Source of the DNA: a virus
Taxonomy: Duplodnaviria > Caudoviricetes
Length of the DNA stretch: 57,545 nucleotides
Virus record (IMG/VR): IMGVR_UViG_3300024243_000020
Location: 1-57,545 of that record
Reading direction: 5' to 3' (one strand)
Under the pieces are notes generated by a model. That model worked only from the letters and a program-made list of their open reading frames with translations, had not been told where the DNA came from and did not search any database. Below, piece after piece: positions 42,203 through 57,545 of the stretch. The position numbers were made by a program, and so were the translations under genes. Each line of letters opens with the position of its first letter. Position 1 is the first letter of the stretch.

Positions 42203-42572
42203 TGGTGGAGGTGGGGGTATCGAAACCCCGTCCTGAATACTCTACATATATAGTCGTTCACAAGTTTTGATTATTTTTTTTTGCAACCTATGCGAAAAAA
42301 TTTAACTAAAAAAACGCATTTTTTTTAATGTTGTTGTACATCCAAAATAATAAAACAAACAATCCATTATATTTCGCCAAATGAACATGGCTATCAGATT
42401 AATGTCCCTTAATGCATATCTGAGTCAAACATTAAGAGTGCTGTTTATACGTATTACTACGCTACAGCGTGATAGTTATAATCGTTTCCAATTACTTTTG
42501 TTGTGATTGTTAAGTCAATCAATCTACTTGCACTACATATTTCAAAAATCCAGTCGAAACCAAGTCACCCCC
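42203..42572 (-). ncRNA. ssrA: tmRNA, tag peptide (A)GNDYNYHAVA
   Basis: 5' GGGGGTGA...TTCGAC; 3' GGACGGGGTTTCGATACCCCCACCTCCACCA; G3-U70 pair; tag ORF 42457..42489 followed by tandem stops. Confidence 0.93.
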
Positions 42573-52863: not shown

Positions 52864-52936
52864 TGGTGCGAGTTGGGATCGAACCAACATATCTTGGGCT
52901 TCACTCAAGTACCTTAACCACATCGGACTCCGCACC
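52864..52936 (-). tRNA. tRNA-Phe(GAA), atypical
   Basis: GGTGCGG/TCGCACC acceptor, canonical T arm, loop GT-GAA-GC; A8, weak D stem, A31-C39 mismatch. Confidence 0.7.
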
Positions 52937-54853: not shown

Positions 54854-55105
54854 TCATTTCAATTTTTTCCAAGGATATGACCAACCTCTAGCTGGATTTT
54901 CATTCCAACCGACTGCGTATCCATTTTCTAATTTACACCAATTATATACATATTTTTCTTTAAATATATTGTGCTTAATTTCACCAGTTTCAAATCCATG
55001 TGTAGATACAACATTAACATTCAACCACGTTTCAAGCTTTTCATCTGATTTTGTGATTGGATTAAACTCTTCACCTGTTGACTTGAGCCAATCTTTTAAT
55101 ATCAT
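54854..55105 (-). CDS. Hypothetical protein
   Basis: WCKLENGYAVGWNENPARGWSYP. Confidence 0.65.
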   Translation of the reverse strand: MILKDWLKSTGEEFNPITKSDEKLETWLNVNVVSTHGFETGEIKHNIFKEKYVYNWCKLENGYAVGWNENPARGWSYPWKKLK

Positions 55106-55413
55106 ATTATAATTTTACCGTTTACGATCTTTGCTAATTGTCCAGAATATTTCAACATCTTCTTTCTTGCAATCATCATCTGTTTAAGTGTGATGAATCC
55201 ACGCTTATGATAAAACTTAACAAAACTCGACATGATCATTGCATCAGCACCTGTAAATCCTACACCATTATCATGATTTGTACTATCAGACTGTTGTTCA
55301 TCAAAAGTCTGCAACTCAAAAATCTTACACATTCCACGTAGAACTGCTTCATCTCGTGTTTCTAACAGTTTACGAATTTCTTCTTTTTTCCAAATTCTTT
55401 TTGTGTTCGTCAT
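55102..55413 (-). CDS. Hypothetical phage protein (start moved to ATG 55413)
   Basis: QTFDEQ...NGVGFTGADA; TAAGGA upstream of MTNTKR. Confidence 0.65.
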   Translation of the reverse strand: MTNTKRIWKKEEIRKLLETRDEAVLRGMCKIFELQTFDEQQSDSTNHDNGVGFTGADAMIMSSFVKFYHKRGFITLKQMMIARKKMLKYSGQLAKIVNGKIII

Positions 55414-55501
55414 GTGTGTTTCCTTATGTATTGTTGTCAATTAACTATGTAAATTTAAGAATAAATACACATATAAAAAAACACTTATTTTCATTCATTT
55501 G

Positions 55502-55577
55502 CGGAGCATAAGGGTTTCGAACCCTCCTGATATTCTACGTGACAGGCAGATGACCACACCAAGCAGTCCCATACTCC
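55502..55577 (-). tRNA. tRNA-Asp(GTC)
   Basis: Cloverleaf, loop CT-GTC-AC, G73. Confidence 0.85.
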
Positions 55578-55586
55578 AAATAATAC

Positions 55587-55693
55587 AGTAGATGTTCTTA
55601 ACCGATATTCAACTATGCCGAAGATATACGAATTATATCCCAAGCTGAGATTCGAACTCATTAAAGCCAGTGAGCTCCCACATGGCATCTACT
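55587..55693 (-). ncRNA. Circularly permuted tRNA-like RNA (Y RNA / YrlA-like)
   Basis: Terminal stem AGTAGAT/ATCTACT; internal order: extra hairpin, T arm TGAG-TTCGAAT-CTCA, loop-closed acceptor-like stem, D-like arm with GG. Confidence 0.6.
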
Positions 55694-55696
55694 TTG

Positions 55697-55768
55697 CGCG
55701 TACTGAAAGTTTCGAACTCTCCCATCGGGGTTTGGAATCCCAATCGCCACCAAGGAACATTAGCACGC
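55697..55768 (-). tRNA. tRNA-Trp(CCA), atypical D arm
   Basis: GCGTGCT/AGTACGC acceptor, loop TT-CCA-AA, G73, canonical T arm. Confidence 0.75.
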
Positions 55769-56000
55769 AAATTATGATTGATATATTATTTTGTTTCTTA
55801 TGGTGTTTGCTGGTTGTTTCCAGAAATAATATATTATATGATTTCACATACAATGTATCGTCATTGTATGTCCAATATATAATCCACAGTTCTCTACTAC
55901 ATATACAATGAATAACCAGTTCGATATCCAACTATTCGTTACTATATATTTCAATGAAACCTACCCTCCACGGATAGTGTGTCTATTATCAATCAATTAT

Positions 56001-56140
56001 ATGTGAATAGTGTGTTATTACACCAAAGGGATGCAGTTTCTTTCACCTGTCACTCAGTTTATAAACTCTGATCATTGAACTTTCGTTCTTTCCCCACTCA
56101 TTAAAAGATGGCTACCTCTAAGCCAACTTCCTATTCACAT
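56001..56140 (-). ncRNA. 23S rRNA H43/H44 (uL11-binding GTPase centre) mimic RNA with internal insertion
   Basis: 10-bp terminal stem ATGTGAATAG/CTATTCACAT; AGGAAGTTGGCTTAGAGGTAGCCATCTTTTAATGAG and GTGTAATAACACACT align to E. coli 23S 1054-1089 and 1091-1105. Confidence 0.85.
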
Positions 56141-56143
56141 TTG

Positions 56144-56223
56144 TTGCGGACACGGGAGTCGAACCGCGTTATTTCCGGGTTATGAGCCCAGCGTGATTTA
56201 TGTGTCCATTTCACTCGCCCGCT
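56144..56223 (-). tRNA. tRNA-fMet(CAT), initiator-type with enlarged D loop
   Basis: A1-A72 mismatch, GGG/CCC anticodon stem, loop CT-CAT-AA. Confidence 0.82.
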
Positions 56224-56238
56224 ATTTTTTTCTTCAAT

Positions 56239-56290
56239 TGGTAGCTCTCCACCAACAGCTCATGACACTGTGGTCGTATACAAGAGAGCA
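56239..56290 (-). ncRNA. Armless mini-tRNA-like RNA (CAT loop, encoded CCA)
   Basis: GCTCTC/GAGAGC stem ending T-A-CCA; second stem closing 7-nt loop GT-CAT-GA. Confidence 0.5.
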
Positions 56291-56433
56291 ATTTTAATCT
56301 TTTGTTACTTTATATTTTATACCATTTATAAATATTATACCTGACTTATTAGTACTATTTACAAATTTCATATATTGAATTTTAGCGTTTCTATCATTCA
56401 TTATATTTTGTATTAATTTATATCCTGATGGTT

Positions 56434-56625
56434 TCATTTCATCCATTCTTTCACTCTATGATAGAAATCTTCTGATGTTGCATGTTTTAAAATTTCTCGA
56501 TCTTCTTTTCTCATTTTCTTAACCAATGCACCAGGTTTCTTTCTATCTGCATCCACAAAAACAACTGACATTAGTAATCTGTGAATGACTTCTCTTATTC
56601 TTCGTTTAGATGGTTTTTTCATCAT
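56434..56625 (-). CDS. Basic hypothetical protein
   Basis: ORF overlapping upstream stop. Confidence 0.5.
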   Translation of the reverse strand: MMKKPSKRRIREVIHRLLMSVVFVDADRKKPGALVKKMRKEDREILKHATSEDFYHRVKEWMK

Positions 56626-56944
56626 CTTTCTCTAAATCTTTAAGTTTTTCATATAGCTTTTTATCTTTGTTCATTCTATTTTTCAATCTTGTCAGCTTAC
56701 CATCTGCTTTCCGTTTTCGTTTTTCAAATTCTTCATCTGTTTCAAGTCGTTCGCCCCATATTTCAACTGCACAATATTCATATTCCTCTATCCATTTAAA
56801 TTGAATATCAGTCACGCCTTCAGCTGTCAAATCTTTTTTAATGGTTTTTATTATTGCAATAGTACCATCTATCTCACAATTCAATATTATGTCTGGATCA
56901 AAATATCCCATGCCTTTGTCTGTAAAAATTCTTTTCTTTTTCAT
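56606..56944 (-). CDS. Hypothetical protein, paralog of 54076..54480
   Basis: WGERLETDEEFEKR. Confidence 0.65.
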   Translation of the reverse strand: MKKKRIFTDKGMGYFDPDIILNCEIDGTIAIIKTIKKDLTAEGVTDIQFKWIEEYEYCAVEIWGERLETDEEFEKRKRKADGKLTRLKNRMNKDKKLYEKLKDLEKDDEKTI

Positions 56945-56966
56945 TTCATTTCATCTCTTTCATTTG

Positions 56967-57037
56967 TCTGGTACATTGAGTCTGAGTCAATCAGTCCATG
57001 TTTCCAAAACACAGATGCCACCGTAGGTCAGTACCAG
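56967..57037 (-). ncRNA. Atypical tRNA-Pro(TGG)-like RNA
   Basis: Perfect CTGGTAC/GTACCAG acceptor with C1-G72 and A73; 7-bp stem around TT-TGG-AA; non-canonical T loop CTCAGAC. Confidence 0.6.
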
Positions 57038-57052
57038 TTAATTTATTTTTTG

Positions 57053-57124
57053 TGGAGGATACGGTGATCGAATCCGTGACGCTGACTTGCAAGGCCAGTG
57101 CTTTCCCATCTAAGCTAATCCCCC
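57053..57124 (-). tRNA. tRNA-Ala(TGC)
   Basis: G3-U70, loop CT-TGC-AA; A53-A61 mismatch in T stem. Confidence 0.88.
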
Positions 57125-57134
57125 ATGTTTTATT

Positions 57135-57335
57135 TCATTCTTCTACATATTTCATATACCATTCAGCGTTATTAGTTCTGATATATCCTATTACCCATAT
57201 AAAAGCTGTTACTATCAATCCTTGCACCATAACTGATGGTAATGTAAATATACACCATAATAGTAAATTGAATAATACTCCAACACAAAATACTACAACA
57301 GCAAGTGCTATTAGTTTTTCTTTTAGATCAGTCAT
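57135..57335 (-). CDS. Small membrane protein
   Basis: Two hydrophobic helices; AAGGA upstream. Confidence 0.6.
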   Translation of the reverse strand: MTDLKEKLIALAVVVFCVGVLFNLLLWCIFTLPSVMVQGLIVTAFIWVIGYIRTNNAEWYMKYVEE

Positions 57336-57353
57336 TTTTTTCCTTTTTATTTG

Positions 57354-57444
57354 AGCTGACAGTAGGATTCGAACCTACGTGGGAGAACTTATCTATCCAC
57401 CTGATTACAAGTCAGGACCTGTCGACCGCTTAGGTAATGTCAGC
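57354..57444 (-). tRNA. tRNA-Thr(TGT) with long variable region
   Basis: GCTGACA/TGTCAGC acceptor, CCTGA-CTTGTAA-TCAGG, ~21-nt variable region. Confidence 0.85.
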
Positions 57445-57545
57445 ATAATTTTTTATTTTATTCAGATAATAACACATCATCTAGCTTTCCATCCATAGGA
57501 AATATTAAAGTCATTGGAATTGACTACTAGACAATATATTATTAT

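Follow-up and report, generated by a model that had tools for sequence, protein, structure and literature searches.

Why should a phage genome carry, among its tRNA genes, a free-standing copy of a functional site of the ribosome? The question is raised by IMG/VR record IMGVR_UViG_3300024243_000020 (Duplodnaviria; Caudoviricetes), a record from sea water with an estimated completeness of 26%, whose analyzed stretch of 57,545 nucleotides is hereafter called the window. A sequence-only reading had proposed that the minus strand at 56001–56140 encodes a small RNA mimicking a part of 23S rRNA, its GTPase-associated center (GAC), namely the uL11/thiostrepton domain. This domain comprises E. coli 1051–1108. 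We conclude that this element encodes a phage RNA that is structured and non-coding and whose two ends form, on folding, a self-closed GAC replica consisting of the tip of helix 42 (H42), H43, and H44. The secondary structure and the known tertiary pairs of the GAC are preserved by covariation, and a structured, lineage-specific insert leaves the 5' strand of H44. The phage RNA probably acts in trans.

Structure of the window element

The perfect 10-bp stem that closes the element on itself was found again when the sequence was re-read. The two halves on either side of the insert resemble 23S 1052–1107, with 42 of 56 bases identical to Salmonella 23S rRNA (L363; 30/39 over 1052–1090 and 12/17 over 1091–1107). 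E. coli K-12 rrlH (L468), likewise taken from database sequence, has the same letters here. The individual changes pointed out earlier hold: positions 1058 and 1080 are A and U, 1053 and 1106 are U and A, and U1072 accompanies U1092 and A1099 to give a UUA base triple. A1067 and A1095 are kept, while G1070 and U1086 differ from the ribosomal bases. Positions 1082 and 1086 are both U in the window element, one of two such cases among 82 regular family members.

In the window, the 19-nt core pattern has a single occurrence, and none of 100 shuffles matches it. The fold of the whole element has a z score of −3.0, with 0/200 shuffles equally stable, and the minimum-energy structure retains the closing stem, H43, a GNRA hairpin, and the insert stem. 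The insert was correctly described as structured; it comprises its own stem (GGGG/CCC), the GAAA-capped hairpin, and two more hairpins, with a UUUG linker at the end. Its attachment site has to be moved, since the family alignment places it between 1090 and 1091 rather than at 1089/1090.

A covariance model of the family, R1, matches the window at 56003–56138 with 97.6 bits, a score given partly by construction because the window copy is one of the 28 seed sequences. The element matches no Rfam family at gathering thresholds or at E values up to 10. Bacterial large subunit (LSU) rRNA (RF02541) has no match in the window at gathering and none around the element up to E = 10, and the Rfam scan gave no other rRNA-like sequence in the window. 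The partial LSU match that had been anticipated is therefore absent from the window element; a sub-threshold piece does appear on a relative, L096 (26.7 bits against a gathering threshold of 50). Fourteen relatives compared with Rfam gave only tRNAs, weak matches outside the elements, a group I intron, and this LSU piece. No description of such an RNA family was found in the full-text literature, subscription-only papers lying outside the scope of the search. The family, for which the earlier reading knew no name, is undescribed in Rfam 15 and in the searched literature, which does not prove its absence from print.

Distribution of the family

The sequence-only reading had suggested building a covariance model and searching phage tRNA arrays, and this yields a large family with covariation. 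A scan of viral contigs with the 5' core pattern gave at least 118 loci, and a scan with a motif of the 3' half that is absent from real 23S rRNA gave at least 119 further loci. When R1 was applied to the first 80 loci, 77 showed a full-length match, one (L046) was a true 23S end, and two had no match. A strict pattern-and-stem finder located complete elements in 82/118 and 72/119 of the listed loci. Both viral scans, the window copy, and four genome loci together provide 106 distinct complete elements of 59–416 nt. Among the 80 contigs with lengths in the first scan, 31 are at least 100 kb long. In prokaryote contigs (one genome per species) scanned with the same 15-mer, just 4 of 120 loci contain a complete element, and the rest look like chance.

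Complete genomes of cultured phages are among the carriers. Serratia phage BF, Aeromonas phage 4_4572, Ralstonia phage RSP15, and Acinetobacter phage ME3 each contain one copy, confirmed by R1, in an unannotated gap; the copies of BF and 4_4572 occupy 285213–285458 and 75080–75365, respectively. Further carriers found by blastn are the Pseudomonas phages pf16, UNO-G1W1, Astolliot, and Milchi, Cronobacter phage GAP32, Pectobacterium phage CBB, Erwinia phage Kaldavass and Erwinia phages of the pEa_SNUABM designation, Xanthomonas phages XacN1 and XbC2, a Vibrio jumbo phage, and Paenibacillus phage Pd_22F. A megablast search of window positions 55000–57545 against named phages gave no match. The nearest relative of the window copy is L406, on a 210-kb contig. 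It is the one relative with the same insert type (L406/L423), with 50 identical bases in the insert, and its closing stem differs from that of the window by three compensatory double changes.

Second, weaker R1 matches lie beside the main element at L050:1744–1862 (29.5 bits) and L407:385–722 (26.8 bits). They could represent additional copies, in tandem or diverged, or a single long element that the model split.

Covariation of secondary and tertiary pairs

Covariation was evaluated in 28 diverse members. In this set, 98.0% of the pair cells contain standard pairs (75.4% in shuffles), and both partners change in 14 of 21 pairs; 0/500 shuffles reach the score, and no slid register comes close. 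All eight pairs evaluated in the closing stem (8/8) covary in the family. Among the 82 regular members, pair 1057–1081 is AU in 68 and CG in 12, and pair 1058–1080 is UA in 37, GC in 26, AU in 15, and CG in 1. The earlier suggestion that the element titrates the L10/L12 stalk is disfavored by the closing stem, which is variable and has no conserved H42 features.

The pair 1082–1086 and the triple 1072/(1092–1099), which we take from crystal-structure papers to be tertiary contacts of the GAC, are retained in the same manner. The former is UA in 36, CG in 31, and AU in 9 members. As for the triple, elements with C1092–G1099 have C1072 in 48/48 cases and U1072 in 0/48, whereas U1072 is found in 16 of 17 distinct elements with U1092–A1099, collected by a scan fixed on U1092/A1099. 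In the subset found by regular expression only, the contrast is 8/9 against 0/48 (Fisher p = 5.4e-9), so that the base-triple covariation noticed in the single window copy is statistically strong across the family.

G1059, U1060, G1071, A1085, G1087, A1088, G1093, U1094, and A1098 are invariant, and presumably constitute the core of the GAC fold. Of the exposed loop bases, A1095 is kept in 54/57 and A1098 in 57/57. Since detection tolerated few mismatches to the seed motifs, the invariance of some positions is subject to ascertainment bias.

The helices, the loops, the 1082–1086 pair, and the base triple are those of the ribosomal GAC, and the family consensus over this stretch equals the Rfam bacterial LSU consensus except at 1101. 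The family differs from the ribosomal GAC in being located outside rRNA genes, in phage tRNA arrays, and in having its own variable closing stem, a relaxed A1067, and three derived features not found in rRNA: A1101 in 81/82 members, pairing with U1090; the insert at 1090/1091; and the UUUG linker after the insert stem.

The number of core bases shared with enterobacterial 23S rRNA may raise the suspicion of a decaying fragment of host rDNA or of an assembly chimera with host rRNA. Such an origin is contradicted by the compensatory changes throughout the element, by the shared derived features, and by the spread of the family, of which over 100 distinct copies occur in unrelated contigs as well as finished phage genomes. 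Moreover, the rRNA likeness in the window is confined to this element, and the stretch is present at 0.98–1.00 of sampled words in 14 DNA runs, which may include the source sample. Debris or artefact has almost no probability, and the view of the element as a selected mimic is borne out by the large covarying phage family.

Inserts and a sarcin-ricin-like hairpin

Insert length varies between 0 and about 340 nt; the inserts are lineage-specific and show compensatory changes within subfamilies. A CCCC-loop-GGUAAGG hairpin lies 10–12 nt before the linker in 26/106 elements. A second inserted hairpin is found at 1077/1078 in 14/102 members, and two copies, L054 and L119 (59 nt), have no insert at all. 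A blastn-short comparison of the inserts with Salmonella 23S rRNA gave scattered chance-level matches only, without general similarity.

One rRNA site nevertheless recurs. When every 12-mer of 23S rRNA was scanned against 115 inserts, before any targeted scan, the site of the sarcin-ricin loop (H95) alone matched across lineages. The sarcin-ricin 12-mer, taken from L363 and allowed up to one mismatch, occurs seven times in 1.4 Mb of loci, where about 0.1 is expected, and all seven occurrences are within element inserts on the correct strand. In a 12-mer scan with E. coli 16S, 23S, and 5S rRNA, the core 2654–2665 appears in seven lineages and other sites in two or fewer, the insert set in this case being enriched by targeted scans.

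The targeted scans combined the sarcin-ricin core with the 3' half of the element. They gave 8 loci with a gap of 61–90 nt and 32 with a gap of 100–130 nt. Shorter gaps gave 3 loci (0–30 nt) and 1 locus (31–60 nt), of which only L426 contains an element. Eighteen distinct sarcin-ricin-like hairpins stand beside GAC-like 3' halves; carriers include L032/L428, L033, L308, L374-type loci, L426, L430, L432, L433, L436, L440, L441, L446, and L447. In the arms around the core, 6/6 pairs change on both sides, and 89.7% of the pairs are formed compared with 64.0% in shuffles, 0/500 of which reach the score. The distance from the hairpin to the 3' half varies from 7 to 126 nt with no fixed spacing. The hairpin resembles H95 in being a covarying hairpin with the 12-nt core exact or with one change in at least seven insert lineages, and differs from it in being an insert module of a minority, with arms whose register differs slightly. 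The window element lacks it, and in Lak phages it is degenerate (see below). The covarying sarcin-ricin hairpin in several insert lineages is new; among rRNA sites other than the GAC, this one alone recurs in the inserts.

The variety of inserts suggests another explanation, in which the GAC-like core is a very stable, perhaps uL11-capped chassis that shields and displays a variable insert with a lineage-specific function. The length range, lineage specificity, and structure of the inserts are consistent with it, as are the second insertion site at 1077/1078, the 50 nt identical between the window and L406 despite the changed closing stem, and the occurrence of the module in a group I intron, where it doubles as a peripheral domain (see below). 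However, the insert-less copies show that the core alone is kept, and the conservation of the core, including the loop bases A1095 and A1098, exceeds the need for a plain stem. In addition, the sole recurrent rRNA-related insert module reproduces the site that partners the GAC in the ribosome. A role as a mere scaffold or handle is improbable.

Genomic context and expression

The positions of tRNA genes around the elements should be noted. A tRNA lies within 700 nt of 55 of the 106 distinct elements, and all tRNAs within 300 nt, 33/33 upstream and 32/32 downstream, are on the strand of the element. In 19/106 elements, a tRNA ends no more than 50 nt upstream, and in 15 of these the distance is 0–5 nt. 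Adjacency to same-strand tRNAs suggests that the RNA may be released by tRNA-processing enzymes. A different arrangement is found in L096, where the P6 region of a group I intron (L096:157–585; RF00028, 64.8 bits) has a complete element inserted in it, 192 nt in length. Because this element sits within the intron, intron excision may be another route to the free RNA. Intron-embedded elements account for 1/106, as judged by the downstream core motif; the window copy is free-standing in the RF00028 test.

In the window, the element is flanked by tRNAs and small ORFs (features in Table 1). The sequence-only reading placed it next to a tRNA-fMet gene. A tRNA-like gene does end 4 nt upstream, but it can be called tRNA-like only, with 23.2 bits against a gathering threshold of 29 and no ARAGORN call. 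By eye, its anticodon stem looks initiator-like, with three G–C pairs at the foot; its acceptor stem was also read by eye, its D-loop is oversized, and its T-stem is bulged. Promoter-like sites show no excess (10, compared with 10.8 in shuffles), and one weak terminator-like hairpin lies at 55961–55977.

Table 1. Positions of the GAC-like RNA element, its parts, and the adjoining tRNA-like gene in the window
Feature	Position	Strand	Remarks
Whole GAC-like RNA element	56001..56140	minus	140 nt; self-closed
Closing stem, 5' strand; equivalent of H42 tip; last base equivalent to G1055	56131..56140	minus	Perfect 10-bp complement of 56001–56010
H43-like hairpin, 23S 1057–1081, loop with A1067	56105..56129	minus	Base-for-base 23S alignment
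Equivalent of 23S 1082–1090: turn with 1082–1086 pair (U/U), then G1087, A1088, G1089, U1090	56096..56104	minus	23S and family alignment
72-nt insert between 1090 and 1091	56024..56095	minus	Fold
H44 tip and 3' strand, 23S 1091–1103, with U1092/A1099 and A1101	56011..56023	minus	23S alignment
Closing stem, 3' strand	56001..56010	minus	Complement of 56131–56140; covariation
tRNA-like gene, anticodon CAU, ends 4 nt before the element	56145..56222	minus	Rfam partial match 56152–56215, 23.2 bits

Imitation of an rRNA site to bind a ribosome binder is the logic of ribosomal-protein mRNA leaders, such as the L10 leader (presumably Rfam RF00557), and the element might accordingly be a cis-regulatory leader that controls a downstream gene in the manner of ribosomal-protein autoregulation. 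No ribosomal protein is encoded among the 124 flanking ORFs (0/124), however, and these ORFs contain no conserved neighbor gene family. The elements are closed by a stem, have tRNAs on both sides, and in one case lie within an intron, and no Rfam leader matches them. Leaders are cis-acting 5' structures with a loose likeness to rRNA, whereas the phage family is a free-standing, near-exact copy. The data contradict a cis leader, and we regard it as very improbable.

Other ORFs beside the elements are recorded here as observations. The flanks of L056, L071, L051, and L072 contain ORFs of homing-endonuclease type (GIY-YIG, PD-(D/E)XK with NUMOD1, and HNH), an ORF of the RlaP RNA-repair family, and a MazG ORF; none of these recurs across lineages.

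In one of four metatranscriptome runs, an RNA-library contig at 55860–56087 spans the 3' 85 nt of the element and continues downstream, with a depth of 24.6 compared with 3.4–5.5 for the other contigs of that run. This depth is a weak hint of expression of the element and says nothing on its ends.

Several other RNA features were observed in the window. A 157-nt contig from one metatranscriptome run covers 55804–55938 at a depth of 600, compared with 4–15 for the other contigs of the run. Adapter letters directly precede 55804, suggesting a very abundant short RNA 65–200 nt downstream of the element; this stretch has no Rfam match, and its fold is not significant (z = −1.3). A weak tRNA-Sec-like match lies at 55698–55768 on the minus strand (18.6 bits against 47), possibly a degenerate tRNA-like gene. 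ARAGORN called ten RNA genes in the window, nine tRNAs and a tmRNA. The phage tmRNA, at 42203–42572 (minus), scores 105 bits and has an unusual tag peptide, GNDYNYHAVA. A further Rfam tRNA match of 38.2 bits at 52864–52936 (minus) has no ARAGORN call.

Possible partners of the RNA

The earlier reading had named, as candidate functions, titration of uL11 or the stalk, dampening of RelA activation, deregulation of r-protein autoregulation, and a decoy of toxins or thiopeptides. A phage-encoded uL11 was found in none of five records (four complete carrier genomes and the window), with 14/14 controls positive. A uL11 partner would therefore be that of the host. One possibility is that the RNA is a sponge titrating free host uL11, a translational GTPase, or a release factor, and thereby reshapes translation or blunts the uL11-dependent stringent response, no toxin being involved. 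The positions that we take to determine the fold or to contact uL11 are all invariant or covarying, in accord with such a role, as is the host origin of the partner, and the sarcin-ricin-like module fits proteins touching both sites, e.g., translational GTPases. On the other hand, ribosomal uL11 already occupies the real site and the free pool is small, so that it is not obvious what a lytic phage would gain. The variable spacing of the sarcin-ricin hairpin is unlike two-point binding of one factor, and A1067 is relaxed. A link to stop-codon recoding is not seen, with 1 suppressor among 240 nearby tRNAs and normal coding density of the window under code 11. Furthermore, because relatives carry the sarcin-ricin-like module, a pure uL11 sponge is less sufficient. 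We consider a sponge unlikely, though hardly far-fetched, and place it second, ahead of the scaffold.

We rank first, at a probability of roughly 0.38, a decoy for ribosome-directed effectors. The RNA would be co-transcribed with phage tRNA genes, judging from its position. Its 5' end would arise from trimming of the 3' end of the neighboring tRNA, and its 3' end possibly from an RNase P cut of the next tRNA. It would then act in trans, off the ribosome, imitating the factor-binding center as a decoy: proteins that act on the GAC of the ribosome would be captured by the copy, which would probably carry host uL11. The likeliest targets would be translation-shut-off effectors of host defense or of competing bacteria that attack the GAC; in relatives with the sarcin-ricin copy, effectors attacking that loop would also be covered. 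Such a role would parallel the one proposed for phage tRNA arrays, namely the counteraction of toxins aimed at tRNAs.

The ranking takes four considerations into account. A pure uL11 sponge leaves the sarcin-ricin copies unexplained, and a single factor bound at two points is at odds with their variable spacing (7–126 nt). Independent decoy modules fit the sarcin-ricin copies, this spacing, and the location in tRNA arrays. Finally, toxins acting on H44 (1095–1098) and on the sarcin-ricin loop exist: PMC8661411 describes a bacterial toxin that ADP-ribosylates H44 at 1095–1098, and cites work in which 23S rRNA is the substrate of VapC toxins and ricin.

Several observations weigh against the decoy. 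A1067 is relaxed, being A in 40/48 and G in most sarcin-ricin-bearing copies. This base is nearly universal in rRNA, and its relaxation suggests that some contacts of factors or thiopeptides may not be copied. Binding of uL11 is predicted solely from conservation of the fold. Among phages and their hosts, no defense toxin directed at the GAC is known to us, Tre23 being an interbacterial one. To divert a catalytic enzyme, a decoy must also be very abundant, and no contig covers 56088–56272 in four metatranscriptome runs, which is uninformative either way.

Further points concern the sarcin-ricin module. The window copy has no sarcin-ricin 12-mer (0 matches with up to one mismatch), and the module is rare in unbiased samples, being found in L032, L033, and L308 within the sample formed by the two initial viral scans and the genome scan. 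Short windows folded to minimum energy show no H95-like hairpin, so that support for the hairpin is placed on the covariation of its arms. A general search of the inserts for AGUA/GAA S-turns shows no enrichment (4 elements compared with 2.9 in shuffles). Finally, Lak megaphages of Prevotella have a degenerate homologue (fifteen records, 70–72% identity). In Lak-B3 (L469, 419455–421031), the tip of H43 is lost and the 12-mer core has one change, and in Lak-A2 (L470) the core has two changes; the closing stem is retained in the homologue, as are the hairpin arms around the sarcin-ricin-like core.

In a wider sense, free-standing replicas of the factor-binding center may be RNA decoys that absorb ribosome-directed toxins of defense systems or competitors, or site-sensing factors, and may form a new class of RNA-based counter-defense. 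This generalization is tentative, the odds being rather against it.

Comparison with other phage and bacterial RNAs

ROOL and GOLLD, as characterized in PMC12286853, are likewise phage-borne, structured, often located beside tRNA genes, and of unknown function. The present family has no Rfam match to either; it is much smaller and is defined by its mimicry of rRNA. To our knowledge, there is no report of rRNA mimicry by ROOL or GOLLD.

Imitation of a cellular RNA to be bound in its place, combined with a modular build, also recalls pseudo-ToxI, reportedly a phage RNA that mimics an antitoxin, and bacterial Y RNAs, which are said to carry a tRNA-like domain. The phage family is distinct from both in imitating a domain of rRNA.

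Biological significance

If the RNA binds the binding partners of the factor-binding center, it would represent an unseen route by which phages interfere with the control of translation or with ribosome-directed immunity, and the logic of this interference would be readable from sequence alone. Since the large family includes engineerable cultured jumbo phages (Serratia BF, Cronobacter GAP32, Pectobacterium CBB, Pseudomonas pf16, Aeromonas 4_4572, and Ralstonia RSP15), this is directly testable. The family also provides natural, compact, and covariation-rich variants of two of the best-studied rRNA motifs, and the sites at which it tolerates insertions, 1090/1091 and 1077/1078, can serve structural studies and the design of RNA.
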